Origin: a virus
Taxonomy: Duplodnaviria > Heunggongvirae > Uroviricota > Caudoviricetes
Direction: 5' to 3' (one strand)
Length of the DNA stretch: 64,000 nt
IMG/VR virus record: IMGVR_UViG_2541047850_000005
Location: 3,554-67,553 of that record
Shown here: piece after piece, positions 8,357-55,832 of the stretch
Layout of the letters: each line of letters opens with the position of its first letter
Position numbering within the stretch: position 1 is the stretch's first letter
The notes under the pieces: model-generated
Told to the model about the DNA's origin: nothing
Seen by the model: the letters and a program-made list of their open reading frames with translations, nothing else
Databases searched by the model: none
Program-made: the position numbers and the translations under genes

Positions 8357-8513
8357 AGTAGGCATTACTTCTTTGTAGTGAAAAGGGGCTTGATAGTAAC
8401 AAAATGGCCTTATGTCTGCCATGTGATAACAGCATTTCTCATAAATGATTAAATGCCGTAGCTGGAGTACACTACAAGGCGACAATTGCGCAAATTAAAA
8501 TAAAGGAGACGGG

Positions 8514-33764: not shown

Positions 33765-34523
33765 TTACCATGTTCCCCATATAGGGTTTTCCAATAATCT
33801 CGCCTCCAACGAATTGGCTACTATTGCCGTTTGCAACGTTGGTTGGGGATAGTTTGCAAAGTCTGAATACTCATTTTCCTGCGTGACACGTTTATCTGCG
33901 GCATGTTTATCTGCGGCATGTTTTACACCACTTGCTATGAAATGACGCATGATGCCCAACAGCCTCCGACTGTCTGCACTATCGTTTGCTAAAACATGAG
34001 GGAGCTGAAGTTCGATTTCTACCATTTCTCCATACTTACCAACAAACTGTAGTTTGTCCGCACTGTACTTTTTATCCCTCCTTTGGATAAGGAAACCAAT
34101 AAAAGCATCACCTGGCGATGCCAAACTATCCACCCGCTTATTGGCAAGTCGAATAAGGTTCGTGAAAGCCATACAGTGATGCGCACCCATTCCCCCAAAG
34201 AACCCTTCGCTATTAATGTTAAGATCTTCAGTTTCATGGGATGCAATAAACCCAGGCCCGACGTTGGGAAGATATCCCCCCTCAACAAAAGGATTAATCA
34301 GGATCGGCGCAATACATCCAGGTGGTAGTGATTTCAAACTTTGCATCAATGGCGTCTCGGATATTAGACCAAGCAACGCGGCGAATTGTACTCCGTCAAT
34401 ATTGTTGCTGCCCCACAGAATACGTGGAGCCGCACCATTGGAAGTATGCCCATTGATCAGTTTTATCGACTGCATCACTGCAAATACCTGCAAAAACTGC
34501 GAGCGGCTTAATTTAAACGACAT
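33765..34523 (-). CDS. hypothetical protein (252 aa)
   Basis: ORF track. Confidence 0.45.
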   Translation of the reverse strand: MSFKLSRSQFLQVFAVMQSIKLINGHTSNGAAPRILWGSNNIDGVQFAALLGLISETPLMQSLKSLPPGCIAPILINPFVEGGYLPNVGPGFIASHETEDLNINSEGFFGGMGAHHCMAFTNLIRLANKRVDSLASPGDAFIGFLIQRRDKKYSADKLQFVGKYGEMVEIELQLPHVLANDSADSRRLLGIMRHFIASGVKHAADKHAADKRVTQENEYSDFANYPQPTLQTAIVANSLEARLLENPIWGTW

Positions 34524-36429
34524 AGCTGCGCCCCTCTTTAACTTCCAGCGTAATAGTTTCCCGGAACCATGACTTCATCTCTTTATGGGAGATAATCAGC
34601 ACAGTACCTCGCTCGCGAGCTTTGGACTCCAGAATACCCATGAGGCGTTCAAGACCGGCTGTATCGAGTGCATCGTCAATTTCGTCGCCGATAAACAAAT
34701 CGATGTTTTTACTCGCCCGGTTACTAACCAGATCCTGCAATGCCAAAGAACACGCAATGCGAACCTTCCGCTTCTCACCACCAGAGAGGGTCTGGAACGA
34801 CTTACTTGAACCTTTCTTCTGCACACTAATGTTGAATTTGTCGCGATACTCACCTTTTTTGGTGACATCCATCGTCGACCACTCAGCAGTAATATTCCCG
34901 TCAGACAACGTATTGAGATACTCGGCAGTGCGTGTATTCAGGAAAGGCGTAACAGACGTCAAAATATGAGAACGCACCCCGGCAGGAGAGTAGACCTGAC
35001 GAGCTTTTTCCAATAGCAACGTTTGTTCCTGAATAGCCTTCAACTCATCTTTTAAGGACTTGAAGGTAGACTTACTGGATACCAGGTTATCTTCGTGTCT
35101 GGCGATAAGAGCAATAAACGGATTAATCTCTTTTGATATACGATCGACCTCAGTACGAGCACGAGTCACAAGAGACTCAATAGCAACAACCTCCTTCTCA
35201 CGATGACGCAAAGATGAGAGTTGTTTCGTAAGCTCTTCAATCCGGGCAATGATAGCCGTTACATCAGGTGTCGTTTTAACAAGGGCAGACTCAATGCTTA
35301 ACGCTTTCTCAAGATTCGTTTTGTGTTTAGCCATTGCCTCTGCAAGTGTCTTCGCCTGACCAATTTCCTGACGTGCTTGTTCAATGAAATTCTCCTTCAC
35401 CGTTGATAGATCTTCTTCGCAGTAGGCTTTGCCACAAGTAGGGCATGGTGATCCCACTTTAGTACCAACCTCTTCTGCTTTGGTCTTAAAATTACGCGCG
35501 CGGCTCATTGCATCAGCCTGACTATTTTCTGTAGCTTTGATGCTTGCCCGAATATCAGTTATCGCACCACGAACTTTGAGCAACTTGGCGTCATGTTCTT
35601 CTTTTGAGGCTAACTTTTTGCGCTCACTTTCGATTGCCTTCTCGGTATCACGGATCTGTTCGGGAAGAGTGCGGATCTCAAGTTCAACTTCCGTTAACTC
35701 AACTTCGGCACTGGCCAGCCCAGCCAGGGCATCGTCATAACGTTTAGAACGCTCTTGCTCCCATGATTCAGAGGAGGCTTTCGCTGACTCAATTTCTGAC
35801 TGTGTTGCCTCAATGGTCGAGATTGTCGACTCCAATTTGGTTTTAACCACATCCATACGTGCGGCAGCTGCATTAGCTCGCTCACGAGCAATAGCGTAGG
35901 CGCGTGTCAGTCTGTCAACGCCAGCGGCTTCTTCTACGATGGTTTTGAGGTTTTTGTCGGACATTCCAGGTAAATCTGGCATAGCTTCTTGGCTCGCATA
36001 GATGGAAGCCATGAAAACCTCTTTAGATGCACCGATCAGACGCTCGACGAACTCTTGCGTCAGCGCATCTTTGCCTTTCGTCATATCGCCGTCTTCACCA
36101 CGAACGATAAGCCGATTTTTGAACTCTTTGTGTTTACGGTGACGAATGATCGCATATCTCTTGCCTTCATCCTCGATGGTTACTGCAACACGACAGTTCT
36201 TTTCATGGTCGGTAGACAACACATCGTCACCCTTCACACCATGAGCTGTTTCGCCATAAAGACACCACATCAGGCTATTCATTAGCGTTGACTTTCCAGA
36301 GCCATTACTTGATGCGGAACTATCATCACTATTAACACCCTGAATGAGCACTAAACCACGCTGATCTAACTCGACCTCCGCGCTGGCGATAGCCATAAAA
36401 TTCTCAACCTGGAGCTTTAAAAACTTCAT
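34513..36429 (-). CDS. sbcC: SbcC/Rad50-like ATPase
   Basis: Walker A NGSGKSTLMNSL, central CPTCG zinc hook in a coiled coil, C-terminal signature LSGGEKRKV and Walker B LFIGDEIDDALD. Confidence 0.8.
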   Translation of the reverse strand: MKFLKLQVENFMAIASAEVELDQRGLVLIQGVNSDDSSASSNGSGKSTLMNSLMWCLYGETAHGVKGDDVLSTDHEKNCRVAVTIEDEGKRYAIIRHRKHKEFKNRLIVRGEDGDMTKGKDALTQEFVERLIGASKEVFMASIYASQEAMPDLPGMSDKNLKTIVEEAAGVDRLTRAYAIARERANAAAARMDVVKTKLESTISTIEATQSEIESAKASSESWEQERSKRYDDALAGLASAEVELTEVELEIRTLPEQIRDTEKAIESERKKLASKEEHDAKLLKVRGAITDIRASIKATENSQADAMSRARNFKTKAEEVGTKVGSPCPTCGKAYCEEDLSTVKENFIEQARQEIGQAKTLAEAMAKHKTNLEKALSIESALVKTTPDVTAIIARIEELTKQLSSLRHREKEVVAIESLVTRARTEVDRISKEINPFIALIARHEDNLVSSKSTFKSLKDELKAIQEQTLLLEKARQVYSPAGVRSHILTSVTPFLNTRTAEYLNTLSDGNITAEWSTMDVTKKGEYRDKFNISVQKKGSSKSFQTLSGGEKRKVRIACSLALQDLVSNRASKNIDLFIGDEIDDALDTAGLERLMGILESKARERGTVLIISHKEMKSWFRETITLEVKEGRSYVV

Positions 36430-42250: not shown

Positions 42251-43081
42251 TTATTTCACTGTAATGAAAGGAGTGTTAGCCCCTTGAGTCATGTACTGCG
42301 GTAACTGGCCATTCCATTTATTGATGGCTTCCAGCTCCATAACGTTCGGGTTTTGACGCAGAGCTTCACCGCGCAGACGAATGGCGTCTGCTTCTGCTTG
42401 CGCACGAGCACGGATAGCATCAGCTTCACCATTAGCCTGTTCACGTAGCATATTCGCCTCAGCTTTACGTTGTTCAACTTCCTGCTGACGTTGCAGAGTA
42501 CGCTGGTTAGCCGTTACTTTGGCGTTGATAGATTCAATGACGGTTTTTGGGTAATCAGGCTTTCCAACCCATGACAGGCTCAGTACCTCAATACCAACCG
42601 GAGACATCTCTTTCTGAATATCTTTCAGTGCGTTGTCCAGCAATTGTGCCTTACCACCGTCGATAAATGAGTCAGTGGTCATACGGCTGGCCAAACGGTT
42701 TAGAGAGTCGGCAATTTTCTGACGCAGATCTGATTCGGTGATATCGTCTACGCCTTTGCGATAGGTCTGGAACACCGTCGTTACCTTGTCACGATTAACC
42801 AGATACGCAACGCCAATTTTGTGACCAATAGCAGTACCGTCACTCATCTGGAATGTGAACGGCTCGTCGTAGGTCTTCATTTGTTTGAAGGTCGGGAATA
42901 CGTAAAGTTCGGTGTTAAGACCTGTCCATTGGCGACCAACGCCAACTACTTCACCAATCCCTTTGTCTTCACCTAATTTGTTTACTTTGATGCCAACGTA
43001 TCCAGGCTCCACGCGATCACAGCCAGTAAGACCCATTGTGCAAACAGCGGCCACGATCACTGCCAGTAAACCTTTCTTCAT
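42251..43081 (-). CDS. SPFH/band-7 domain lipoprotein
   Basis: Lipobox LTGC after a signal peptide; band-7-like core and C-terminal coiled coil (EADAIRARAQAEADAIRLRGEAL). Confidence 0.6.
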   Translation of the reverse strand: MKKGLLAVIVAAVCTMGLTGCDRVEPGYVGIKVNKLGEDKGIGEVVGVGRQWTGLNTELYVFPTFKQMKTYDEPFTFQMSDGTAIGHKIGVAYLVNRDKVTTVFQTYRKGVDDITESDLRQKIADSLNRLASRMTTDSFIDGGKAQLLDNALKDIQKEMSPVGIEVLSLSWVGKPDYPKTVIESINAKVTANQRTLQRQQEVEQRKAEANMLREQANGEADAIRARAQAEADAIRLRGEALRQNPNVMELEAINKWNGQLPQYMTQGANTPFITVK

Positions 43082-43377: not shown

Positions 43378-45717
43378 TTACTCTTCTACTGACTCGGTGG
43401 GGTTGTCTTTTGCTCTTCGGTCGTCGATTGCCTGCAAAGCCGCAATGATTTCAGCCAGTGGCTTCTCCCGATACATCTCGACGATCTGCGATTTGGTGTA
43501 TTTCTTGTCACCAATTTCAACTCGCCCGCTGGCGTTCTTTGGCAGGTATCCTTCTTCCAGCATGTACTCGACGAGCGATTCGATAACGTCGAGGCCACGA
43601 GTAGGATCGAAGTAGAATTTCCAGGTGCATTTGCCATACGGTGGTGCAACTTTGTTTTTGATGCATTCTGCGCCTACGTCCTGGCCGATCTTCTCTTTAC
43701 CATCCTTCATCACCGATGCACCAAGACGGATACGTACAGAAGCGTAGAACTTCGGTGAATCTCCACCTGGCGACGTAGTAGGGTCGCCAAACATTACACC
43801 GATTTTTGTGCGAACCTGATTCAAGAAGATGATGCAGGCGTTGTATTTGCGTGCCCACAAAGCCAGAGTAGGGAAGTTCGCACTTGTCGCACGAGCCAGT
43901 GCCGTATTGTCGTTCATGTTTAGCTGATCTTTGTCTTTGGCAGTGCCTTCAGCCATCTTTTCGAACTTCTCGGCTTTGGAGTTCGGAACCATAGACGCAA
44001 GTGAGTCAGCCACGATACAGATAGGTGCTGATTCAGGAATAAGCTCTTCATCACGTACCAATTTAAGAATTGTGCCGATCAACTCTACAGAGTCTTCGAA
44101 GGTATCAGGCTGCTTGTATACCCACTGACCGTCATCCTCATCTGCGTTCAGGCCATTGGCTACAGCCAGGCCAACGTCAAAACTGTTTTCATGATCGAGG
44201 AATACCGCCAGACCATCTTGTTTTTGAGCGGAGATCATCGCTGCTGTTGCAAGGAATGTGTTGTGGCTGATAATCCCGTTAGACCAGAAAGAGTGTGTTT
44301 CCGGCATCGCTACGTCGAACGTTGGTGCTTCACCTTCCTCAATAGCCACGACTTCGTCGTAGAATAAGTTAGAGCCAATTACCGCTGCCAGTTGTGCAAA
44401 CAGATGCTCGTTAAAACGATTCTTTCTGCCAATGAAGGAGACATAGATTTCTCGCAGTTTGTCTATTCCGACACGATCGCCGCGGCCAATAACGTGGTCT
44501 ACCAGAGCGTAGTCTTCACGGGTGGTCTTGGTGAGCGACTCGTAGAGTGATTTCACTAAGCCGCTGATGTGCGGAACATAGCCTGAGTAAGTGCGGTCAA
44601 AACCAATGTCCCGTTTGGTTGCCACTGATAAACGTGCCGGAGATTCGAAACCAATCGTTGACAGAAAAAGGTCGTAATTAGAGCCACTGAATGACAGCCG
44701 GTAATATGTATTTTCATAACCCGCGACGTGTTTTTCAGAGATAGTTGACGTAATCCCCAGATTCAGGAGCATGAGGCGAATTTGCTGTAGCAGCAGCCCA
44801 CTCGCGCTCACAACCTCAATGCAGCGACCACCATTGACGTGGCATTCCAGCTCAAAGTAGCCGCGAAGGAATGCAATTTGAGCCTCGCTATTGGCGCGAC
44901 GCACACTCAACGGAACCTGCTTGCCAGCAGCTTTCTCATACTCCAGACCATATTCTTTAAAAAGCAGCGAACGCACCTCTTTGCTAAACAGCACATGGTC
45001 TTCCGAGCCGTTATGTTTTCTCGTAACTGGCATCTTGTCTGATACCAGCGAAATGAGGCGGTAGTACTCATCCTTGATGAATGGATCTGTGTTAGAAAAA
45101 TGCACAGAATTTTCAGAGGCCACGTATCCGTCAGCAATTAAATAGCCCATCAGTTTTGCGATATTGGCATCCAAGTGCTGATCGCCGAATTGATGTGTGC
45201 CAACCATTGAAGGAATCGTGTCGCCTACACTGATTTTTTCAGCATACCGCCAGACGATATTGCCTAAGTCGTCAACCACACGAATTGGGTGACGGAACGT
45301 AGCCTCGATGTAACCCCCTGATGCCAGCTTAATGCGCTTGAATTTGCGACGGTTGTTCCATGTCAGGTGTGAGGTTTTCTCTATCACGCCATTTTCATTG
45401 ATGAGTCCAACGTTATGCTCTACATCGCGAGTAGTGCATGTTGCTTTGTGCCCCTCAATCTCAAACAGTTCTTTCACTGTTACCATTCCACGCTCCGTCA
45501 GCAGCATGGTGTCTGCGGTAACACATTTCCCCGCACTTGGAGGACCGAATACTTCGACGATACGACCACATGGGAAACCGCCATCGTAACGACCGGAAAT
45601 CGCTTTGTTTAACGGAGGAAAGCCTGTGTCAATCCAATGAGTTACTTTCTGAATTTCGTCGTTGCTACCGATTTTCTTTTTCAGAGCAAGTGCCAGTGCG
45701 GATTTTCCTTTTGCCAT
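43378..45717 (-). CDS. recA: RecA-family recombinase interrupted by an intein
   Basis: N-extein ends …VFGPPSAGK, C-extein resumes TFLATAAM…FLNQVRTKIGVMFGDPTTSPGG…FYASVRIRLG (collinear with bacterial RecA); 779 aa total, 357 aa after predicted splicing. Confidence 0.85.
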   Translation of the reverse strand: MAKGKSALALALKKKIGSNDEIQKVTHWIDTGFPPLNKAISGRYDGGFPCGRIVEVFGPPSAGKCVTADTMLLTERGMVTVKELFEIEGHKATCTTRDVEHNVGLINENGVIEKTSHLTWNNRRKFKRIKLASGGYIEATFRHPIRVVDDLGNIVWRYAEKISVGDTIPSMVGTHQFGDQHLDANIAKLMGYLIADGYVASENSVHFSNTDPFIKDEYYRLISLVSDKMPVTRKHNGSEDHVLFSKEVRSLLFKEYGLEYEKAAGKQVPLSVRRANSEAQIAFLRGYFELECHVNGGRCIEVVSASGLLLQQIRLMLLNLGITSTISEKHVAGYENTYYRLSFSGSNYDLFLSTIGFESPARLSVATKRDIGFDRTYSGYVPHISGLVKSLYESLTKTTREDYALVDHVIGRGDRVGIDKLREIYVSFIGRKNRFNEHLFAQLAAVIGSNLFYDEVVAIEEGEAPTFDVAMPETHSFWSNGIISHNTFLATAAMISAQKQDGLAVFLDHENSFDVGLAVANGLNADEDDGQWVYKQPDTFEDSVELIGTILKLVRDEELIPESAPICIVADSLASMVPNSKAEKFEKMAEGTAKDKDQLNMNDNTALARATSANFPTLALWARKYNACIIFLNQVRTKIGVMFGDPTTSPGGDSPKFYASVRIRLGASVMKDGKEKIGQDVGAECIKNKVAPPYGKCTWKFYFDPTRGLDVIESLVEYMLEEGYLPKNASGRVEIGDKKYTKSQIVEMYREKPLAEIIAALQAIDDRRAKDNPTESVEE
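44260..45525 (-). mobile_element. intein with LAGLIDADG homing endonuclease, inserted in the RecA P-loop
   Basis: Begins CVTADTMLL, contains ATFRHP (TxxH), LMGYLIADGYV and FLRGYFELECHV, ends GIISHN followed by Thr; about 422 aa. Confidence 0.85.
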
Positions 45718-45719
45718 GA

Positions 45720-45992
45720 TCAGGCTCCTTTTGTTTCGTTGATTCGTTTTAAAGCGGCGGATTCGTCGAATACAATCGCATCGTGGTTAAGGTGTCTGGA
45801 TACACGAGCGAGGATTTTTACGACCTGCTCGCTGACTAATCCAAACTCGCGATCTGTCGCTTTCATTCCGGCAGCGTCTAGAATTGACGGCAGTGCGATG
45901 ACAGCGTACTCACCGTGATAAAAGACAATCTCTTTTGCCAGTTGGGTAGGGGTGGTTGTAGCGCCATTAATAATCGATTTAAGCATTAGCAA
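45720..45992 (-). CDS. hypothetical protein (90 aa)
   Basis: ORF track; coupled to RecA and FEN genes. Confidence 0.4.
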   Translation of the reverse strand: MLMLKSIINGATTTPTQLAKEIVFYHGEYAVIALPSILDAAGMKATDREFGLVSEQVVKILARVSRHLNHDAIVFDESAALKRINETKGA

Positions 45993-46981
45993 TACCTTTC
46001 GAATGGAAGAACAAACACTTCAAGGTCTTCAAGGAACGAACGGAAATTCAGCTCGTAGCACAGTTGCTCGAATGCTTTCACGTCACGATTGCCTTTGATT
46101 GTTTCGATTTCGGTAGGCGGAAACTTCGTCTCAATCAGGTTCATTAGCGTGATGTTTCTCTTGAACGCTTCGAGCATTCGACAGCCTGTTTTCTCGTTGA
46201 AGGCATTCTTCGCTAGTTTGTTGAAGGCGGTCTTATGACGCCCTTTATTAACCACGATTGAGCCGTCGTTGATGCCGCGTACCATCGTTGCGACACTTCC
46301 CCATTCATGCAGTAGCTCTTTCGCACCGCCAGCACCAATGCCACCAACACCGCTAATGTTGTCCGATTTATCGCCTTGTAATGCTTTTGCTTCCAAAAAT
46401 GCGCGAGGAGTAGCGAATCCTGTCAGCTCCGCAAATTGCTCAAAATTAACCTGCTTGTTTTTGGCGTCTTCGCGCAGGCTTACCCAGCTTACGTTTTCGC
46501 GAACTAACTGAAGCCAGTCGCTATCGCCTGTTAACAGATAGATGTGTTCAACGATTGGCTGCGGTGCAATGCTGGCTACCAGCAGCCCGGCCAGATCATC
46601 CGCTTCTGCATCTTTTGCAATGAGTTGGGTAACTCCAAGCGCGGTCATCATTTTGAGGATGTATGGCTTCTGGATAGCAAAGCCTTCCTTCATCTTTTTC
46701 ATATCAGGATCGTCGTCGCGATTTGCTTTGTAGTCCGGGTAAAAGTCGCGACGCTTGTCACTAAATCCATCCCAAAGAATCATAGGTCGGGCATGGAGGA
46801 TGGAGGCATAACGACGGACGTTCTTAACAAAGCCGAAAGCAGCCTGTACTTCCATTTCGCCGTTGTGCAATTTGTCAGATTGTTGGTGGTAATAACCCAG
46901 GCTATTGCCATCTACGAAGAGATAATTCTCCGGTACATTCCTTCCAAAAAGTAAGGCGTCCGTAGACGCCTTACTGGTCAC
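45986..46981 (-). CDS. 5'-3' exonuclease / flap endonuclease (FEN, Pol I 5'-nuclease family)
   Basis: LFVDGNSLGYY, AEADDLAG, LTGDSDWLQL, QGDKSDNISGVGGIG; start is GTG at 46981 and the first codons contain a hairpin, so the exact start is uncertain. Confidence 0.75.
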   Translation of the reverse strand: MTSKASTDALLFGRNVPENYLFVDGNSLGYYHQQSDKLHNGEMEVQAAFGFVKNVRRYASILHARPMILWDGFSDKRRDFYPDYKANRDDDPDMKKMKEGFAIQKPYILKMMTALGVTQLIAKDAEADDLAGLLVASIAPQPIVEHIYLLTGDSDWLQLVRENVSWVSLREDAKNKQVNFEQFAELTGFATPRAFLEAKALQGDKSDNISGVGGIGAGGAKELLHEWGSVATMVRGINDGSIVVNKGRHKTAFNKLAKNAFNEKTGCRMLEAFKRNITLMNLIETKFPPTEIETIKGNRDVKAFEQLCYELNFRSFLEDLEVFVLPFERYC

Positions 46982-46990
46982 GTAATGGGA

Positions 46991-48019
46991 TTAAAGAGAG
47001 TCCAGCTCTCTCAGTAGGTCATCCAGACCTTCATCTTCCGTCGCAGATGCGGCTGCTACAGATGTCGCTGCGACTGCTTCAGACTCTTTGACTGATACTG
47101 CAACGGCAGCGGAACTTGCTTCTGGTTTAAATTCAGTTTCAACGGCACGGAGGATTTCTTCATCAACCAGACTGGTTGGTTCAGAAGCTGGGGTGTGAGC
47201 GGTAGCTACAGCAGTCGCACCCTCCGTATGACCAGTGACAGAGCCAAATCCAGGCAGTGCCGCAGCCGATGTTTTCGCGGTTGAGGAAATTGCTGGTGCA
47301 GATGCTGCGGCAGTTGGTGCAGCGATGCCAATCAGACGACCCATAGTGCGAACTGTCGACAGAAGACGAGTTTCATCAGCCTGATTTGCGTATGCGATCA
47401 GATCATGCTGGGTGTTCCAGAATTTATCTTCGATATCGCCTTTGTAGACTTTACGCTTAGGCGAGACGTCATATTTGGTATCGCGACCAGAGCCAGTACG
47501 TTTAATCAGGAATGCGTAGCCTTCCTCTTTGCTCAGTGGATTACCGATATCATCAGCGATGTCTTCGGTGATTGCTTTGCAGATATCATCGAATACAGTA
47601 GACGGCAGCTCGATTAACTGGCATTTCTCAGCATCTGCGAAATCCTCACGAGCAGAAAGAATGCCGTTGACCAGGTAGCGAGGAGTGGCACGCATTTGAC
47701 CGATGCGTTCTTCCATTGCTTTGTTACCCTTGTGACGAGCGCGACCTTCCATCACCATTTCGCATAGCTGACAAGCGCGACCGTGAGTATGTTGCTCACA
47801 AATATAAGCGTTGGTTGCTTCTTTACCTTCCTCGTTCTGATACTTAACGTAGTGCATACCGAAAGTCTGGAAGAACTTACCGTTTGGGTCGTCTTTATTC
47901 GGGAAGATGCGGATATAGTTGACGCCGTCTTTTAAGCGAGTCAGATCAACGTTGTTACCACGTTTGGCGGCAATGTCTTCACGAGTTTTGTTAAGCAAAT
48001 CAAGTAATGTCTTAGACAT
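46991..48019 (-). CDS. putative single-stranded DNA-binding protein (gp32-like)
   Basis: Cys/His cluster CEQHTHGRACQLC, long Ala/Ser-rich linker and acidic C-terminal tail …EDEGLDDLLRELDSL typical of SSB interaction tails; inference. Confidence 0.45.
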   Translation of the reverse strand: MSKTLLDLLNKTREDIAAKRGNNVDLTRLKDGVNYIRIFPNKDDPNGKFFQTFGMHYVKYQNEEGKEATNAYICEQHTHGRACQLCEMVMEGRARHKGNKAMEERIGQMRATPRYLVNGILSAREDFADAEKCQLIELPSTVFDDICKAITEDIADDIGNPLSKEEGYAFLIKRTGSGRDTKYDVSPKRKVYKGDIEDKFWNTQHDLIAYANQADETRLLSTVRTMGRLIGIAAPTAAASAPAISSTAKTSAAALPGFGSVTGHTEGATAVATAHTPASEPTSLVDEEILRAVETEFKPEASSAAVAVSVKESEAVAATSVAAASATEDEGLDDLLRELDSL

Positions 48020-48693: not shown

Positions 48694-51600
48694 TCACGAC
48701 TTAATAGTTTCTGCTACGTCGGCTAATATCGCTTCTAGTCGTTCTCCCTCTTCAGGTCTGAAGTAAAGAATGTTGGGGTTAAACCCGTAAAAGACAGTAA
48801 CGTCAAGGTCTGGAAGATACTCCTTCCTGCCGACCAAATCGGATGGCTTGTTTTTGTTGTTAAACAATGCCGTTGCCCGGCTGCCACACGTCAGCACATA
48901 GGTCGGACGCACCAGATTGATCTCTTCACGTATAAAGTCGGTGAACTGGCCGATCTCGTCTTTGGTGTAGTCTTTTTCTTTGTCTTTAACCTTCTTGCAA
49001 ACGCCTGTGACATAGAGATCGCCCATGCGTAAATCTCCAGCCGTCAATAGCTTGGCCTTAAAGTCGTCGTATCCGTTCTCCATAAAGTAACCTGTTCGAG
49101 CATCATTGCCGTTCGCATTGTCCAGAATGATCATGATTTTCGGCTTAATACCAATGCTGGGGCGGATTAGTTCATCACCTAAGCCCATTTCAGCCGCCAT
49201 CCGTGTCATGAGCACGTTAATCTCAGCCGAACGTTTGGGGTTCATCTCAAACGGACGTGAGGCTTTAACTGCGTCTATGACAAGATTTCCCATCAATTCC
49301 GCTTGGTCGCGGAGACGTTCTGGATCAGTTGCTGGCAGACTACCTGGCTCGATGGATGCAAACGCACCTACTTTTCGCAGTGATTCGCGCACTCGACTAT
49401 TACAGGCACGTTTCTCGACAGCTTCTTCGAATTGCGCCAGTGACTCGAATTTGCCGCCAACTTTTTCTCGCGCTCTCATGATGGCTTGGCAGCCATTCTC
49501 AGAACACCCCTTCACAGCAGAGAAGGGTGCATACAGAACCTGGCTGCCATCTTCAAGCGTGCGGATCTCGATTCGGTTAGATGACACGTTAACGTCTGGT
49601 GGCAATACGCGAATACCATAGGTCAGCGCATCTTTAACCAGCCCTTGGTGTTTATCTTCGCCAAGAATAGTGAGAGCAGCAGCGAAAAACTCTGCGGGAT
49701 AATGAGTTTTCAACCACATAGATTGATAACTGATTAAGGAGTAAGCAACAGAGTGTGATTTGTTGAACTGGTAGGCACCATTTTTTTCGAATGCGGTCCA
49801 GATCTCCTTCGCTTTCATCTCTGATAGGCCAGGATGTGACGCTGTAACGCGTACTGCGTTTATAGGTAGTTTTGCGCCGTGCTCAAGTGCCTCTTCGACA
49901 GTTTTCAGAGTTCCGTCTTCGCATTTAAAATGTTCCGCACGGTGAATGCGCTGTGTAGTGCCATCTTCCAGCTCAACGTCTATCCAGCCAGCTTGAGCCT
50001 GAACGATGAACTTCTCGCCCATGCTCTTCATTTTTTCCATGTTCTTCTTACCGATTGCGGAACGCACACCGTCAGCTTCAGCCATTGTGAAGCCGGCAAG
50101 CAATCGAGTCGCGTTCATCGTCTGTTCCTGATAGAGAATCACGCCATTTGTTTCCGCGGTAAGTTCATCAAGAACGGGGTGTAATGATTCCGGCGTCATA
50201 AAGCCTTTGGCGACAGAAACATAGTCATCCAACATGCCTGATTGAATTGGCCCCGGCCGGAAGAGCGCAGTTGTAGCGACGACCGTTTTAAAGCTCATTG
50301 GCTCAATTCCACCACCTAAATCTTTAAGCAGCTTGCGCATTGGGCCTGATTCAAGCTGGAAAACACCTTGAGTGTACCCAGCAGCAAAACCATCCAGTAC
50401 CTTGCGATCTTCAAGAGAAATGGCATCAAGATTGATATCCTCACCTGTGTTCTCTTTAATGTAGCGTTTTGCACTATCGAGCAAATCGAGAGTCGCCAGG
50501 CCAAGTACATCCAGCTTAATTAGGCCCATAGCCTCGCAGTAACGCTTGTCAAATGCGATACAACGCGCGTCACCACGGCGTTCAACCGGTGTACGTTCTG
50601 TCAAGGGAACACCTGCTACGATCATCCCTGCCGCATGTCTGCCAAAGCCACGCATAATGCTTTGTAACTTACAGGCTGCATTGAATGCATCAGGATATTT
50701 TGTCGCGTATTTGTCGAGACTTGCTAGTTGTTCGCGCAGCTCTTCCAATGGAAGGCTATCATCCTCGACGTTCTTCAGTTCTTTTGATACCGCCATATCC
50801 GCAGCATCGACACCGTAAATACGCGCAGTGTCACGCAGCGCAGAAGCAGCGCCCAGATAGGTGAAGTTCGGAATACCGGCAACGTAATCTTCGCCATAGC
50901 GTTCATTCAGATACTCGATCACCTCATGACGACGTGCCTGACTGAAGTCTAAATCAGCATCCGGCAAGTCGAGACGCTCAGGGTTGATGAAACGCTCAAA
51001 CAGAAGACCGTGACGGATTGGGTCGACGTTGGTTATGCCTATGCACCACGCCACCAGAGAACCGGCAGAGGAACCACGACCAGGCCCAACGGGAATGCCA
51101 GTTTCACGACTATGATTCATCAGATCGCGCACCATCAGGAAGTAACCACAGAATCCCAGGCGAGTCAGCGTGTCCATTTCGTACTTTAGCCGCTCAACAT
51201 AAACCCTGTTCTCAGAAGCAGGTGGTGTGTATCCAAACTCTTTTGTGGTAAGACGTTTACGCAGCCCTGCAACAGCCAGTTTCATCAGCGTTGCAGGTTC
51301 GTCGTCTGCCATCTTGGGCAGTGCTGGTGGCAATTCATGCCAGCGCCATGTGCAGGCATCGATAATGGTATCCTGCGTTGTTGAGGCCATTGCAGCTGTT
51401 ACCGGCACATCCATGCGAACGGAGAAGGCTTTAAGCGACTCAAGGAGATGGCGGCGACCATTGACGGCGTTATCTCGCTGGTGGGGGATACGCAGACGAT
51501 GCGGCTGGTCGATTTTTATGTTGTTCGTAACCATGTGCGCAATGTCTTTAATGTCTGCATCGTCGATCGATTCGTAATAAGCGGGATAGAACGCTACTGG

Positions 51601-52212
51601 CTCTATTTTCAGTGCGCTGGCTACTTTCATCGCTCGGACGTTAATCTGGTCGTAGAATGGGGTAGGGTGCGGATAAACCACGCTATAGAAGTTGTCTTTT
51701 CCACCCGCTGTAATCAGTGTGCTTATGATTTTTGCAAAATCGTTGCGTTGGAACACGCTACCGATGTCGGAAGTGAGCAGGATGATGTTGCCTTTGGCAT
51801 ATGTAGAAACCAACTGTTCGAGCGAGAGACGCGGTACAAAGTAGAACTGTTCTCGTGTGTTGGCCACCGTCATTAGTTCGCAGATGTCGCGATATCCTTG
51901 CTCATTTTTAATTAGAGCGGTAAACGAGTAGTTACGTCCCCGCTCTAATGATTCCATACATCTCATAGATTCTTTAGCAAGTTTAGCACGGTGCTCGTAT
52001 GTGGGATCATCAACAATGTTTAGTTTCACACCACAAATAACCGCCATGTCGTCACCAGCGGCACGTTGTAGTGGAATAACGCTCGCAATATTCATGCTAT
52101 CTGCTGAAATTACAGCGGTGTAGCCAGCTTCTCTGGCAATCTTCACCGCGTTTTCTGCTTTTAAAGCCGACTCCCCAAGTGAGAAGTCAGTTCGAACCAT
52201 CAGTGCCTTCAT
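48694..52212 (-). CDS. dnaE: DNA polymerase III alpha subunit (DnaE family)
   Basis: 1172 aa; GIPVGPGRGSSAGSLVAWCIGITNVDP…LLFERFINPER and AYQFNKSHSVAYSLISYQSMWLKTHYPAEFF match the DnaE polymerase core; N-terminal PHP-like domain. Confidence 0.9.
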   Translation of the reverse strand: MKALMVRTDFSLGESALKAENAVKIAREAGYTAVISADSMNIASVIPLQRAAGDDMAVICGVKLNIVDDPTYEHRAKLAKESMRCMESLERGRNYSFTALIKNEQGYRDICELMTVANTREQFYFVPRLSLEQLVSTYAKGNIILLTSDIGSVFQRNDFAKIISTLITAGGKDNFYSVVYPHPTPFYDQINVRAMKVASALKIEPVAFYPAYYESIDDADIKDIAHMVTNNIKIDQPHRLRIPHQRDNAVNGRRHLLESLKAFSVRMDVPVTAAMASTTQDTIIDACTWRWHELPPALPKMADDEPATLMKLAVAGLRKRLTTKEFGYTPPASENRVYVERLKYEMDTLTRLGFCGYFLMVRDLMNHSRETGIPVGPGRGSSAGSLVAWCIGITNVDPIRHGLLFERFINPERLDLPDADLDFSQARRHEVIEYLNERYGEDYVAGIPNFTYLGAASALRDTARIYGVDAADMAVSKELKNVEDDSLPLEELREQLASLDKYATKYPDAFNAACKLQSIMRGFGRHAAGMIVAGVPLTERTPVERRGDARCIAFDKRYCEAMGLIKLDVLGLATLDLLDSAKRYIKENTGEDINLDAISLEDRKVLDGFAAGYTQGVFQLESGPMRKLLKDLGGGIEPMSFKTVVATTALFRPGPIQSGMLDDYVSVAKGFMTPESLHPVLDELTAETNGVILYQEQTMNATRLLAGFTMAEADGVRSAIGKKNMEKMKSMGEKFIVQAQAGWIDVELEDGTTQRIHRAEHFKCEDGTLKTVEEALEHGAKLPINAVRVTASHPGLSEMKAKEIWTAFEKNGAYQFNKSHSVAYSLISYQSMWLKTHYPAEFFAAALTILGEDKHQGLVKDALTYGIRVLPPDVNVSSNRIEIRTLEDGSQVLYAPFSAVKGCSENGCQAIMRAREKVGGKFESLAQFEEAVEKRACNSRVRESLRKVGAFASIEPGSLPATDPERLRDQAELMGNLVIDAVKASRPFEMNPKRSAEINVLMTRMAAEMGLGDELIRPSIGIKPKIMIILDNANGNDARTGYFMENGYDDFKAKLLTAGDLRMGDLYVTGVCKKVKDKEKDYTKDEIGQFTDFIREEINLVRPTYVLTCGSRATALFNNKNKPSDLVGRKEYLPDLDVTVFYGFNPNILYFRPEEGERLEAILADVAETIKS

Positions 52213-52396
52213 GTGTTTTTACCTTTCTGGTTTTTTTGATTTTGTCATTTGGGAAGCCTACGAACTTCCCATGCATCGAAATCGCAACTTCTTTTGCTGA
52301 TTGGTGACAATAAGGCTTGTCTGGACACACCAGACAAGCCTTACCAGTTTCAGAAGCAGCGATAAGAGAGCCGAAACATCCTTTACGCACGATCAA
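52187..52396 (-). CDS. hypothetical small Cys-rich protein (69 aa)
   Basis: ORF track; CLVCPDKPYCH cluster; overlaps the dnaE start by 26 nt. Confidence 0.3.
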   Translation of the reverse strand: MIVRKGCFGSLIAASETGKACLVCPDKPYCHQSAKEVAISMHGKFVGFPNDKIKKTRKVKTHEGTDGSN

Positions 52397-53628
52397 CCAA
52401 ATATTTTTTGAACAACTTCACGAGCCGCTTGTGCAGAAGCTGAAGGGAGTTTGTTAATGAAAGAACGCTCAATACCTGTCACAAAATCGCCTCGCATCAT
52501 TCCAATCTTGGCCGACAACAAAAGCTCACGAGGCCCAATCGGTTGGCTGATATTGTGTTCTTCGTATCCATCGCGAACGATACCGGCAAACTTAACCATC
52601 TTTTCAGCGTATTCATCCACGATGCCGGCATTTATCAACATGTTGATCTCTGCCTCTTTGCTCATGTATTTCACATTCGAAACGATGCCAAAACGCGAAA
52701 AGTTAGCGGCGTTCTGGATGTTTGTACCCTGGTACAAGCCGGTTTCATCACCAGATCCGTTCGTGTTGCCAGTGCCAATGAAAGCAAACCGTTCATGCGG
52801 AGTAATGCGACGCCATTCTGGAGTCGCCTCTTTGATGACCAACGCTTCACCTTCCAGCACTGGCTGATACACGCCAAGAATCTGTGGAAACGCAAAGTCG
52901 TATTCATCCGCGAGGTAAACCCAGCCATGCTTCATTGCGAGCGCAAGCAAACCAGGCTCGAAATACGTAGAGCCATCACGCGCCAGAATTTGTCCCGTAA
53001 CATGAGCCTCTTCCATTGATGCTGTATGTTGGGCACGGATTAACGGACGATTGAGCAAAGCACATAGTTGTGTAGGCAATGAAGATTTGCCTGTTCCTGC
53101 ATGACCCCACAAATAGCCTGGTATGCCAAGTTCAAGCATCATGAAAATGTCTTTGATCAGTTCGAAGTCGCCATATACGTATCCCTTCTTCACTTCTGGA
53201 ACGAACTCTGGAAACGGCGTATTGACGTTGACGCTAACCATGAGCGGCGTCCCACGTTTTGTTCCGAGTTCTTTCACCGTTACATTTAGCATTTCGTGAG
53301 CTGCGACCAGATCTGTCTTGTACTCAACTGTGCCTGTATAGCCTGGGCTATTGGTCACGCCAGATGATTTGGCCATTTCGCTTTTTTGCTCGGCACGTTT
53401 AGCTTGAATTGCATCAAGTGCCTTTTTCGATAGCGTTGGCTCATCTGGAAACTGCGTTGTGTACATTTTCAGTACGGTGTCAGGATCGGCATCTTTTACT
53501 GACTCAGGAATGCCCTCGCAATTACCATTGGCTACATGGGACTTAAAATAGTGAAATGATTTTCCGCACCACTTGCAAACAAGGTAATCAGAAGGATTTT
53601 TTTCATTTTGCAGTGCAGTAGTAGTCAT
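52393..53628 (-). CDS. AAA+ ATPase, CobS/MoxR-like
   Basis: Walker A GHAGTGKSSL and Walker B-like VYLADEYD. Confidence 0.65.
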   Translation of the reverse strand: MTTTALQNEKNPSDYLVCKWCGKSFHYFKSHVANGNCEGIPESVKDADPDTVLKMYTTQFPDEPTLSKKALDAIQAKRAEQKSEMAKSSGVTNSPGYTGTVEYKTDLVAAHEMLNVTVKELGTKRGTPLMVSVNVNTPFPEFVPEVKKGYVYGDFELIKDIFMMLELGIPGYLWGHAGTGKSSLPTQLCALLNRPLIRAQHTASMEEAHVTGQILARDGSTYFEPGLLALAMKHGWVYLADEYDFAFPQILGVYQPVLEGEALVIKEATPEWRRITPHERFAFIGTGNTNGSGDETGLYQGTNIQNAANFSRFGIVSNVKYMSKEAEINMLINAGIVDEYAEKMVKFAGIVRDGYEEHNISQPIGPRELLLSAKIGMMRGDFVTGIERSFINKLPSASAQAAREVVQKIFG

Positions 53629-53723
53629 GCGTTTTTCCTTTGTTTTCTAATGAGCTTTCAACTTCTTATATAAATATACCATCAAATATCGTAAGTGATT
53701 ACTTATCATTAAGGCTATTCTAA

Positions 53724-55832
53724 TCACTTCAAAATGATACGAGATAGTTCAGTAACTACAGATGAACCAAGACTATCAACGCTCGTTACCAGGGCATGGT
53801 TTGCGTAAAATCTCTCCGGTGCGTCAGTCATGATGCCAATTGCCATCAAATCAATGTCAGTCTGCGTTTCAATTTGCTTCGCAACCGAACGCAAATGAGC
53901 GTCAAAACCTCTCCCAACAGCCAACGGCTCGCCATCATTCAGAACAAGCATGATCTTCCTGTCCTCCATGCGACCGGAAAATAACGATGCAAGGCTGGCT
54001 ATGCTTTCACCATCCACGTTATTAAGAAGTGGGAATGTGTAGCCTACGCACCCCATACGTGAGCGAACTTCGCGAGAATTTACCTTTTCATTCCAATTTT
54101 TGATGATAGGTAGCATTAAAGATTCAAAGCGAGAGAACTCATACTTGACAGCCTTAAGTTCTCCTGCCGCCATATGACTACCAAATGTAGTGAAGCCGGT
54201 GATAATGTTGGGAACATTTATTCGATCAAGGGCATCGGCGATGGTATATGCACTTGCAAGAGCCAATTGTATCGTTATACCACTCATTGAACCTGATAAA
54301 TCAATCACTTGTTGAACACAGGCGTTAACGGCTTTAGATTCTTCTTTTTTACGAAACACGCGATCATCATTCATTGCTAATCTGTAGATACTAGAACCAT
54401 GAATGCGCCCCCGACGCTGGCCCGGTATAAACTGAACTCTGTTTCTGCTTGCTATTGCTCGCTCCAGGTCTTTTGCCAGCGTCGACGAAACACCTGACGA
54501 AAGATGCTTTTCAATATATTTGTCGAAGAGCTGGTTGCCTTCAGGAACGATGCGATAGCGGCTGATTGGATATCCTCCTAAATCAATATCGGAGAATGTT
54601 TTAATAAGCCGTTTGATATGGGCTTCTGCCTGATCAATCGAGCCGATGAAGTCGTATGAGCGATTGTATGGCCTGTATTCACTTTTCGAGCTTTCTGTTA
54701 ACTCGCTTTTAATCGTTTCGGATAGAGCATCTTCTGTCATGCCTCCGACTTCATCTTCTATGCTATCCAGCTCCTCTAAAGCCTCTTCCAGACTCATTTT
54801 TGACGTAGTTGGAATATCTGAAGAGCCGTCTTCTGTCGTTTTTCTTTTTTCGTGGTCAGCGGTTAATGATTCTGACGCCGCGTTATCAGAAGCATCAGAA
54901 TCTGATACCTCTTTATCATTTTCTGTATCATCGAATATTGTTTCTGATGATTCAGAATTATCTGAATCATCACTGTCGTTATTATCATGTTTGTGCTTAC
55001 TATGTGATTCTGATTTGATAGATTTGTGATTATCTAACAATGAGGGTGTCTCATGATCTTCGTTGTCTTCATTGTTTTCTCCAGAGGCATCCGTCTGGTC
55101 AGCGTCTGAAGGATCGGAAGTTTTTCCCGGAGCTGACTCCTTACCTTTGCTTTCACTTTCAGTGTCTTTGAGGATCTTAGCTATGGTCGCAGCCACCTTT
55201 ACACAATCCTCGGTGCAAGACATGTTACGCACGGCCACATCGATACCATGTTCTTTTAATAATGAAATTGGTTTCTCAATGACAGGCCAATATTCATCCA
55301 TGAAATCTACGAACGGTGCTTGGCCATCCCAGGCTCTTACAACCGGACAGAGAAAGAAGTTTAGAAAAAGCGCGCGCTGATCTTTGCCACAATAAGCAAT
55401 AGCCTCTGAAGCCTTTGGTTTAAAGACTTTTTCGATTATAAGGCGCTGAGTTGCCATCAGATTACGTCTTGTTCCGTTAAAGACCTGACCCATTTTTCGC
55501 TCGATGAACACGTCTTCTAAGGCATTCCATAGCGACCAGGAAGGAACGCGTCCTTTTTCTTTCATTTTGTTGGACACACGAATATCGGTAAACAAAATGT
55601 GAGCAACCTCATGATCGAGAAATCCGCGCACAGCATTCATCAATGCCGGTGTTGCGTTATCCGGGATTGATGGGATGTTTACGAGAATTGGCTCTCCATC
55701 ATCATTATAGCGTACATAAGCGTCGTCCCCTCGTTCTGCAACAGGGATGTTTTTACCTGAAAGGAGAGCGACTACTCGTTTTACACTGTCACGGAAGTCC
55801 TGAACCTCTTTGATGGAACGTTTTTTAGACAT
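53724..55832 (-). CDS. CobT-like protein with acidic linker and C-terminal VWA domain
   Basis: Central Asp/Ser/Glu-rich low-complexity stretch; C-terminal MIDAS-like VIDLSGSMSG. Confidence 0.6.
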   Translation of the reverse strand: MSKKRSIKEVQDFRDSVKRVVALLSGKNIPVAERGDDAYVRYNDDGEPILVNIPSIPDNATPALMNAVRGFLDHEVAHILFTDIRVSNKMKEKGRVPSWSLWNALEDVFIERKMGQVFNGTRRNLMATQRLIIEKVFKPKASEAIAYCGKDQRALFLNFFLCPVVRAWDGQAPFVDFMDEYWPVIEKPISLLKEHGIDVAVRNMSCTEDCVKVAATIAKILKDTESESKGKESAPGKTSDPSDADQTDASGENNEDNEDHETPSLLDNHKSIKSESHSKHKHDNNDSDDSDNSESSETIFDDTENDKEVSDSDASDNAASESLTADHEKRKTTEDGSSDIPTTSKMSLEEALEELDSIEDEVGGMTEDALSETIKSELTESSKSEYRPYNRSYDFIGSIDQAEAHIKRLIKTFSDIDLGGYPISRYRIVPEGNQLFDKYIEKHLSSGVSSTLAKDLERAIASRNRVQFIPGQRRGRIHGSSIYRLAMNDDRVFRKKEESKAVNACVQQVIDLSGSMSGITIQLALASAYTIADALDRINVPNIITGFTTFGSHMAAGELKAVKYEFSRFESLMLPIIKNWNEKVNSREVRSRMGCVGYTFPLLNNVDGESIASLASLFSGRMEDRKIMLVLNDGEPLAVGRGFDAHLRSVAKQIETQTDIDLMAIGIMTDAPERFYANHALVTSVDSLGSSVVTELSRIILK

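Follow-up and report, generated by a model that had tools for sequence, protein, structure and literature searches.

In the window, the whole 64,000-nucleotide stretch of viral DNA analysed here, a gene for a RecA/UvsX-like recombinase is interrupted between the Lys and the Thr of its Walker A motif by a class-1 intein, which shows Cys1, TxxH, His-Asn and Thr+1 and carries a double-motif LAGLIDADG endonuclease, an assignment that is fully supported. It is very probable that the complete explanation holds: a bona fide class-1 intein with a LAGLIDADG homing endonuclease, predicted splicing and homing included. Features of the gene are given below, with conservation counted over eighteen intein-bearing alleles (17 IMG/VR loci and the window's own gene).

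43378..45717, minus strand: precursor gene for the intein-containing RecA/UvsX-like recombinase, 779 aa (open reading frame and translation)
45526..45717, minus strand: N-extein, residues 1–64, which closes with GPPSAGK, the start of Walker A
45526–45546, minus strand: GPPSAGK, the N-side part of Walker A
44260..45525, minus strand: intein, 422 aa, precursor residues 65–486, in which a LAGLIDADG homing-endonuclease domain divides a Hint splicing domain
45487..45525, minus strand: block A, CVTADTMLLTERG, with the Cys1 nucleophile (Cys1 invariant in 18/18 copies)
45286..45300, minus strand: block B, TFRHP (TxxH motif; Thr and His invariant in 18/18)
45127..45153, minus strand: first LAGLIDADG motif, LMGYLIADG, catalytic Asp at intein residue 132
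44845..44871, minus strand: second LAGLIDADG motif, FLRGYFELE, catalytic Glu at intein residue 227
44287..44325, minus strand: block F, PTFDVAMPETHSF, with conserved Asp and His
44257..44280, minus strand: block G, NGIISHN (penultimate His and terminal Asn), followed by the nucleophilic +1 Thr of the C-extein
43378..44259, minus strand: C-extein, residues 487–779 and stop codon, starting with the Walker A Thr (TFLATAAM)

The host element is an SSU5-type Escherichia coli phage-plasmid. The gene has an AAAGGAG ribosome-binding site just 5′ of it and shows 100% identity to Escherichia phage PhiR41_1 (PV340561.1). A reading of the window as chromosomal DNA with an integrated element, prompted by metG-like and usher genes, was rejected because both window ends are collinear with PhiR41_1 (99.4–99.9% identity) and because all 252 E. 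coli matches to the phage-plasmid recA gene (252/252) are plasmid-borne. The element is temperate and contains a complete UvsX/UvsY/gp32-type module. Rfam returned zero hits over the full window, so no group I/II intron or riboswitch is associated with the recA gene, and Pfam scans of ten other large open reading frames found no second intein in the window.

The insert (CVTADTM...GIISHN) lies between the Lys and the Thr of GPPSAGK|T, and its splicing residues fall in precursor numbering at C65, T140-F-R-H143, H485, N486 and T487. Cys1, TxxH, His-Asn and Thr+1 are invariant in all eighteen copies and are also kept in distant same-site RecA inteins. Four profile models match above their cutoffs: Intein_splicing (Pfam PF14890, 46.0 bits, cutoff 35.8), intein_Nterm (NCBIfam TIGR01445, 36.3 bits, cutoff 24.5), intein_Cterm (NCBIfam TIGR01443, 16.9 bits, cutoff 15.6) and LAGLIDADG_3 (Pfam PF14528, 68 bits, cutoff 22.5). 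Chance does not account for the insert.

An AF2 model of the 422-aa intein, run from a multiple alignment, reached a pLDDT of 83.8 and a pTM of 0.87, and in this model the N- and C-terminal segments are predicted to form a Hint fold. Foldseek searches gave full-length top matches to the inteins TliVMA (7qss; E 4.5e-23, TM 0.73), PI-PfuI (1dq3), PI-PkoII (2cw7) and PI-SceI, while the central domain matched I-DmoI and I-Tsp061I. The first three are the closest structures and combine Hint and LAGLIDADG domains (E 4.5e-23 to 4.3e-17, TM ≤0.73); they are archaeal, reside in other host proteins and share 15–21% sequence identity with the phage-plasmid intein. The endonuclease domain, besides matching its family model, has two LAGLIDADG motifs with one acidic catalytic residue each, and Asp132 and Glu227 are invariant in 18/18 copies. 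The second motif ends in Cys instead of Gly, and full endonuclease activity is therefore uncertain.

These results bear out most of a sequence-only reading of the window. It had described a 779-aa open reading frame with a 422-aa insert at 44260–45525 after the P-loop Lys, with coordinates that proved correct to the base, and the motifs that it quoted (GPPSAGK, TFRHP, LMGYLIADG, FLRGYFELE, PTFDVAMPETHSF and NGIISHN|T) are all present at verified coordinates. Its proposal of a class-1 intein plus homing-endonuclease signature agrees with the four profile models, the AF2/Foldseek match and a clean empty allele (below), and the Pfam Hint/LAGLIDADG_3 search that it had suggested yielded both Intein_splicing and LAGLIDADG_3 above cutoff.

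The C-extein carries the rest of the RecA core, and once the insert is removed this core (Walker A, Walker B, L1 and L2) is contiguous. The predicted spliced extein gives a single contiguous match to Pfam RecA (PF00154) at 27–281, with 145.8 bits (cutoff 27), whereas the unspliced precursor scores lower, at 125.7 bits in two stretches. As the same reading had held, the exteins are collinear with bacterial RecA: the spliced 357 aa align unbroken to E. coli RecA across its GPESSGKT, and the continuous alignment includes GRIVEVFGPPSAGKT versus GRIVEIYGPESSGKT. The extein also matches phrog_97 'UvsX-like recombinase' (E 1e-91) and scores 153.7 bits against the bacterial RecA equivalog TIGR02012, under the cutoff of 325.3. 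Judged by sequence, the extein is a divergent phage-type RecA paralogue, not a cellular RecA orthologue.

Splicing of the 779-aa precursor is predicted from these residues and from established intein chemistry. The gene itself shows that a single precursor is translated, with its ATP-binding loop split by 422 residues; before splicing the recombinase should not bind ATP. An N-S acyl shift at Cys65 would be followed by thioester transfer to the hydroxyl of Thr487, Asn486 would cyclise with the aid of the block F Asp/His and of His485, and Lys64 and Thr487 would finally be joined by an O-N shift. This is predicted to yield a 357-aa recombinase equal to that of intein-less alleles. The excised 422-aa protein would act as a monomeric double-motif LAGLIDADG endonuclease through Asp132 and Glu227, cutting the intact GCx-GGx-AAA|ACx in an intein-less recA when two related phage-plasmids are present in one cell. 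With the intein-bearing copy as repair template, the empty allele would then be converted, and a few flanking extein bases would be taken along.

It could instead be supposed that an endonuclease gene was inserted in frame and inactivated the recombinase, with no splicing. PGAP often labels the whole protein 'LAGLIDADG family homing endonuclease', and a few disrupted alleles exist (H87, H129 and L087), which would suit such a reading. Yet all the residues for the four splicing steps are present and invariant, Hint-domain models match above curated cutoffs at both ends, and the insertion lies exactly in frame at the Lys|Thr nucleophile site. Furthermore, one open frame runs through both exteins in 18/18 copies and likewise in 237 long PLSDB alleles, which were matched over at least 80% of gene length. 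We therefore regard a dead recA as highly improbable.

The sister phage-plasmid CMS-2020a carries an intein-less allele, which differs by a clean 1266-bp indel exactly at the insertion position. Its product is identical to the predicted spliced RecA at 357/357 residues, and its empty site reads TTCGGTCCTCCAAGTGCAGGGAAA|ACGTTCCTTGCAACAGCAGCGATG. A further 62 empty alleles were found. In the window, the former homing site is divided into two halves.

45526..45549, minus strand: N-side half of the former homing site, TTCGGTCCTCCAAGTGCGGGGAAA, with a synonymous G at −7 common to all intein-bearing alleles
44236..44259, minus strand: C-side half of the former homing site, ACATTCCTTGCAACAGCAGCGATG, with a synonymous A at +3 common to all intein-bearing alleles

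The junction combination GCGGGGAAA|ACA occurs in 18/18 intein-bearing alleles versus 0/62 empty alleles. Between the window's exteins and CMS-2020a there are seven differences, all synonymous and all within gene nt 90–195, around the junction, which lies at nt 192. Such clustering has a chance probability of ~6e-6. The shared junction bases could in part reflect common descent of the flanking segment, rather than repeated co-conversion.

Allele patterns carry the case for mobility. The IMG/VR comparison covered the best 80 matches. The eighteen intein-bearing alleles are not phylogenetically independent, and the fraction of 18/80 is not an estimate of prevalence because selecting the top 80 favours full-length matches. 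Minimum identity between the eighteen alleles is 96.5% for the intein versus 81.2% for the exteins. Of 14 extein clusters, 4 contain the intein, interspersed with empty alleles (7/26, 5/15, 1/13 and 5/5). Compared with Klebsiella phage p4727, the window's two exteins are 79.7% and 81.7% identical and its intein is 98.1% identical, with a dS of 2.2 for the exteins versus 0.049 for the intein, and extein divergence in the Klebsiella allele is uniform right to the junction. All eighteen copies are full-length, with invariant Cys1, block B Thr/His, Asp132, Glu227, block F Asp/His and His-Asn, and their polymorphic codons comprise 30 synonymous versus 25 non-synonymous. More widely, the long allele is present in 237 of the 736 PLSDB plasmids with the gene and in 114 of the 250 E. 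coli genomes with it. The extein dN/dS is 0.019, which mostly reflects divergence older than the intein invasion and is therefore no proof that lineages with the intein still depend on the recombinase.

Splicing might be intact and the endonuclease dead, leaving the intein to spread only vertically or by ordinary recombination of whole recA segments. Endonuclease domains are clearly degenerate in two distant same-site bacterial RecA relatives (P0011 and P0016), so decay does occur in this family of RecA P-loop inteins, and the Cys that replaces the final Gly of the second LAGLIDADG motif points the same way. Against this, the exteins diverge by as much as 19% while the inteins they carry stay 96.5–100% identical, and the divergence of the Klebsiella exteins is uniform up to the junction; taken together, these observations imply that the intein moved with few flanking bases, which fits endonuclease-driven homing and not segment exchange. 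Both catalytic acidic residues are also invariant, and intein polymorphism is biased to synonymous changes. We consider loss of endonuclease activity unlikely. A dead endonuclease is in itself a late stage of the homing cycle.

Active homing is the reading that we prefer. The population data suggest that it is ongoing, with the intein apparently still spreading, and their pattern indicates that homing has probably been recent and repeated among elements of E. coli, Klebsiella and other types. The putative route, proposed from the allele patterns, is that the endonuclease cuts the intein-less allele at a specific site and that gene conversion follows.

The sequence-only reading had also suggested that the insertion site and the host element might be undescribed; neither suggestion is supported. 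An intein between the Walker A Lys and Thr counts as the 'classic' P-loop insertion (PMC5050341), and GPPSAGK|C...HN|T conforms to it (between the Lys and the Thr/Ser of GxxxxGK[T/S]). The same position is occupied in five other RecA precursors, and homologous inteins at this site occur in metagenomic phage RecAs and in canonical bacterial RecA. RadA, the archaeal homologue of RecA, likewise has inteins in its P-loop (PMC5790916), and those of Pyrococcus horikoshii and Thermococcus sibericus share the position of the phage-plasmid RecA intein. The RadA inteins come from hyperthermophilic archaea and are mini-inteins that lack a homing endonuclease; their splicing has been shown experimentally to depend on temperature and ssDNA. 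In contrast, the phage-plasmid intein is a full-length LAGLIDADG intein in a mesophilic enterobacterial element.

Same-site relatives are found in Herelleviridae. The RecA of Bacillus phage fHSPT3 has a homologous intein after the Walker A Lys (GKPGGGK|C...HN|S), as does a UvsW-like helicase of Staphylococcus Twort-like phages (STNGGK|C...HN|T). The helicase insert is annotated 'intein' in phage Twillingate. These phage-ATPase inteins share ~33–34% identity with the phage-plasmid intein over all 422 aa, but they are carried by Gram-positive lytic myophages, their exteins show only a distant relationship and the helicase belongs to a different ATPase family. Insertion between Lys and a nucleophilic Thr is shared also with mycobacteriophage TerL1-a, DnaB-b, MCM-a and RFC-a (PMC5050341, PMC4760082), although the host proteins differ.

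The Mycobacterium tuberculosis RecA intein (PI-MtuI, NF007072) is likewise a class-1 intein with an endonuclease domain in a bacterial-type RecA. NF007072 aligns weakly to the endonuclease part of the phage-plasmid intein (22 bits), and the whole protein, with its other insertion site, scores 98–100 bits, far under the cutoff of 1024 for membership. The extein is continuous over NF007072 positions 32–253, with the phage-plasmid insertion at ~71–74 and the M. tuberculosis intein segment (~305–514) beyond; this unbroken alignment places the M. tuberculosis-type site downstream of that stretch. The M. tuberculosis N-extein is ~771 bp, and the published domain figure shows Walker A, Walker B, L1 and L2 (PMC11377839). 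The statement in the sequence-only reading that mycobacterial RecA inteins sit elsewhere is right for M. tuberculosis, whose site is well downstream of the P-loop.

As for the host element, NCBI/UniRef already list the identical 779-aa protein under the name 'intein-containing recombinase RecA [Escherichia coli]', in a 1496-member cluster. RefSeq plasmid records label the protein 'LAGLIDADG family homing endonuclease' or 'hint domain-containing protein'. Our literature search, which left the site tables of Novikova et al. (PMC4760082) outside its scope, found no paper describing the SSU5-type RecA intein; that paper reports 56 bacterial RecA inteins, some from Proteobacteria. Neither Swithers 2009 (PMC2814812) nor Lennon 2016 (PMC5238726) contains text on RecA or the P-loop site. 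The phage-plasmid RecA intein is textbook-like, at a classic site and in a protein already catalogued, with little that is new, and a standard intein class at a standard P-loop position carries small weight as a discovery.

As the intein splits the P-loop, splicing could be a conditional switch. On that account, conditional splicing has been co-opted for post-translational control, and the recombinase stays inactive, its P-loop split, until a trigger such as ssDNA, DNA damage, redox state or prophage induction sets off splicing. RadA of P. horikoshii provides a precedent for such a switch. The RadA P-loop inteins, whose splicing is temperature- and ssDNA-responsive (PMC5790916, PMC5238726), occupy the same functional position, and the phage-plasmid intein is kept at a frequency of 32–46% in a temperate element with a whole UvsX/UvsY/gp32-type module. 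A purely selfish homing cycle, however, equally predicts an intermediate frequency, many close relatives thrive with the empty allele, and no co-adaptation between intein and extein was detected, the same intein being present on exteins with 81% identity. Co-option as a switch is, on balance, quite unlikely. There is a similarly slim prospect that such a switch may time activation of the UvsX-like recombinase between plasmid-like maintenance and lytic replication, making the intein not only selfish.

For annotation, the finding calls for repair: phage records say 'hypothetical protein' or 'RecA' and RefSeq often gives the endonuclease label, which, placed on a whole recombinase, means that the recombinase can be missed in comparisons of phage-plasmids. 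Presence or absence of the intein is also a 1.27-kb indel that may confuse typing and clustering of SSU5-like elements. Intein-bearing and empty alleles coexist at ~1:2 to 1:1 across hundreds of sequenced E. coli and Klebsiella phage-plasmids, which makes them a handy natural system, in a model host, in which to study how inteins home, how long co-conversion tracts are and whether splicing may be conditional. Were splicing conditional, the element would offer an E. coli parallel to the archaeal RadA intein switch that is mesophilic and amenable to genetics; if the homing reading is true, a homing cycle would still be running naturally among E. coli and Klebsiella phage-plasmids of a family that is common in the clinic.

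The recombinase precursor and its insert occupy the following positions in the window:

43378..45717, minus strand: precursor ORF of 779 codons (translation of the window)
44260..45525, minus strand: intein CVTADTM...GIISHN, residues 65-486, 422 aa (ORF translation)

The intein falls between GPPSAGK and TFLATAAM, and so between the invariant Lys and Thr of the Walker A loop. Its motifs were located by coordinate: Cys1, block B (TFRHP), the LAGLIDADG motifs LMGYLIADG and FLRGYFELE, block F (PTFDVAMPETHSF) and block G (NGIISHN), followed by Thr at +1. An earlier sequence-only reading had described an intein with a LAGLIDADG endonuclease in a RecA P-loop; its coordinates for the insert match ours exactly, all the motifs it quoted were found and verified by coordinate, and its structural reading is upheld by profiles, motifs, predicted fold and an empty allele.

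In the Pfam search which that reading had proposed, the 422-aa insert alone matched LAGLIDADG_3 (68 bits; cutoff 22.5) and Intein_splicing (46 bits; cutoff 35.8), while NCBIfam returned intein_Nterm (36.3 bits; cutoff 24.5) and intein_Cterm (16.9 bits; cutoff 15.6) and aligned the insert to intein portions of many archaeal and bacterial proteins, including RFC, aIF2, GyrA, DnaB, RNR and V-ATPase. An AlphaFold2 model, built from an input alignment of 13 sequences, was confident (mean pLDDT 83.8, pTM 0.87). The solved structures closest to this model were endonuclease-containing inteins, namely TliVMA (7qss; E 4.5e-23, TM 0.73), PI-PfuI, PI-PkoII and PI-SceI, and its central domain also resembled the free-standing LAGLIDADG enzymes I-DmoI and I-Tsp061I. 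By all tests applied, judged from profile matches and predicted structure, the insert is an intein.

More than any other single result, an allele of the sister phage-plasmid CMS-2020a indicates that the insert is a discrete mobile element, predicted to be excised from the protein, as opposed to a domain of the recombinase: CMS-2020a has the same gene without the insert, differing by a clean 1266-bp indel at the Lys-Thr codon boundary and encoding a 357-aa product identical to the predicted spliced product. This conceptually spliced protein gave a single continuous Pfam RecA match (145.8 bits), compared with two stretches (125.7 bits) for the unspliced precursor, and, as the sequence-only reading had anticipated, aligned unbroken with E. 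coli RecA across the P-loop, with GRIVEVFGPPSAGKT facing GRIVEIYGPESSGKT. Its score against the bacterial RecA equivalog (153.7, under the cutoff of 325.3) and its assignment to PHROG 97, ‘UvsX-like recombinase’, identify it as a phage-type RecA paralogue, not cellular RecA.

The recombinase gene is 100% identical to that of Escherichia phage PhiR41_1 (PV340561.1), with which the window is collinear at both ends, and shows 98% identity to phage Cyrano and 91% to Klebsiella phage vB_KpnS_p4727; all four are SSU5-type phage-plasmids. In complete E. coli genomes, all 252 matches to the gene were on plasmids. In Cyrano, an exonuclease and a UvsY-like mediator are annotated near the recombinase, and its neighbours in the window include:

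46991-48019, minus strand: gp32-like SSB (Pfam)
45986-46981, minus strand: ORF whose counterpart in PhiR41_1 and Cyrano is annotated as 5'-3' exonuclease

Together with the recombinase gene, these belong to a large DNA-metabolism block (46991-48019, 45986-46981, 34513-36429, 48694-52212, 30797-33112 and 52393-55832, all minus strand) that also encodes an SbcC/Rad50-like ATPase, DNA Pol III alpha, class I ribonucleotide reductase, CobT and an AAA_5 ATPase. No second intein was found in the ten other large ORFs of the window that were scanned. Two ORFs downstream of the recombinase is a gene conserved across SSU5-like elements (42251-43081, minus strand); its Cyrano counterpart is annotated as a stomatin-like integral membrane protein, those of PhiR41_1 and SSU5 as a lipoprotein. 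Elsewhere, the window encodes a full-length class I methionyl-tRNA synthetase (6323-8485, minus strand; tRNA-synt_1g 553 bits, plus anticodon-binding and tRNA_bind domains), also annotated in PhiR41_1 and Cyrano and unusual cargo for a temperate element. A low-GC region (about 35%; about 58000-63400) carries a chaperone-usher fimbrial usher (Usher, PapC_N, PapC_C; e.g. 59247-61727, minus strand); it is present in PhiR41_1 and absent from CMS-2020a and Cyrano, whose similarity ends at about 58000, and, lying beside an integrase, looks like strain-specific adhesin cargo.

The gene matched 736 plasmids in PLSDB, 237 of them carrying at least 80% of the long allele, and occurred in 250 of 5426 complete E. 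coli genomes (long allele in 114), so the intein-bearing element is both common and polymorphic. A few alleles were disrupted (plasmid or genome matches H87, CP059946.1, and H129, NZ_CP075717.1, and IMG/VR locus L087): one match is split over about 3.1 kb, which suggests that roughly 0.8 kb more has been inserted; another is confined to the C-extein and the C-terminal part of the intein; and one is an empty allele with a disrupted N-terminus.

Exteins and intein have diverged to very different degrees. The window and Klebsiella phage alleles share 79.7% DNA identity in the N-extein and 81.7% in the C-extein but 98.1% in the intein, and their synonymous divergence is about 2.2 for the exteins and 0.049 for the intein. 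We compared 80 extein alleles, comprising the window's gene and 79 of the best 80 IMG/VR loci (L087, unclassifiable, was left out): 62 were empty and 18, not phylogenetically independent, carried the intein, each copy 1266 nt long within an intact 779- or 780-aa ORF. Among these 18, the lowest pairwise identity was 96.5% for the intein and 81.2% for the exteins. The intein occurred in four of 14 extein clusters, in three of them alongside empty alleles. Regardless of extein background, all 18 shared the synonymous junction context GCGGGGAAA followed by ACA, a combination found in none of the 62 empty alleles. The window's exteins differ from CMS-2020a at seven nucleotides, all synonymous and all within gene nt 90-195, a stretch surrounding the junction (nt 192; chance of such clustering about 6e-6), in a pattern that resembles a co-conversion tract. 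None of the 18 inteins varied at Cys1, at Thr and His of block B, at either acidic LAGLIDADG residue, at Asp and His of block F or at the C-terminal His-Asn pair, and polymorphic codons across these copies were synonymous-biased (30 synonymous, 25 non-synonymous). From these sequence comparisons, the intein appears to be homing now, or to have been so very recently. Two intein-less IMG/VR loci, L013 and L023, have an N-side flank typical of intein-bearing alleles (…AGCGCGGGGAAA) but read ACC or ACG at +1 to +3; possible explanations are precise loss of the intein, partial conversion of a recipient or an ancestral donor-type background.

Under standard class-1 intein chemistry, splicing would proceed through an N-S acyl shift at Cys65, transfer of the thioester to Thr487, cyclisation of Asn486 aided by His485 and block F residues, and an O-N shift creating a Lys64-Thr487 peptide bond that restores GPPSAGKT. 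As the P-loop is split until then, no ATPase activity is expected of the precursor. Once excised, the intein would cleave empty alleles of co-resident elements and be copied into them by double-strand-break repair, carried out perhaps by host RecA or by recombinase of the element that has already been spliced.

The sequence-only reading was right that the intein of M. tuberculosis RecA has a different position: the extein of the window's gene aligns without a gap to positions 32-253 of the Mtb-type model NF007072, whose intein segment lies beyond 253 (the Mtb RecA N-extein is about 771 bp; PMC11377839), whereas the window's intein is in the P-loop. Its suggestion that the insertion site might be undescribed was not borne out. 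P-loop inteins are documented in DnaB, MCM, RFC and many other ATPases by Novikova et al., whose tally of RecA inteins in bacteria reaches 56 and includes proteobacterial cases (PMC4760082), and the archaeal RecA homologue RadA has one in its P-loop (PMC5790916). Homologous inteins (30-45% identity) occupy the identical position between Lys and Thr/Ser in RecA of Bacillus phage fHSPT3, in metagenomic phage-type RecAs (P0007, P0009, P0018) and in canonical bacterial RecAs (P0011, P0012, P0013, P0016); a further homologue, already annotated as an intein, interrupts the Walker A motif in the UvsW-like helicase that Twort-like staphylococcal phages encode. P0011 (L008:3001-5166) lies on a 550-kb contig of MAG assembly GCA_027484465.1 and P0016 is from a metagenome; the endonuclease domains of both are clearly eroded, with LAGLIDADG motifs lost and large deletions, which places these cellular recA inteins further along the homing cycle.

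Nor did the possible novelty of the host element hold, as the identical 779-aa sequence is already named ‘intein-containing recombinase RecA [Escherichia coli]’ in NCBI and UniRef (e.g. EFK7891749.1, ERA97494.1, UPI0003910B1E), within a 90%-identity cluster of 1496 members. RefSeq plasmids label the precursor ‘LAGLIDADG family homing endonuclease’ or ‘hint domain-containing protein’, and PHROG 9666 is essentially the intein-containing precursor. Our literature search found no published description of this intein, and phage GenBank records of the gene lack intein annotation; the intein is thus catalogued yet uncharacterised. It is a textbook intein at a textbook site, already named in databases, and its remaining interest is as a tractable homing system of E. 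coli phage-plasmids that, judging by allele patterns, still appears to be active, and, by analogy, as a possible, unproven mesophilic counterpart of the RadA conditional-splicing switch.
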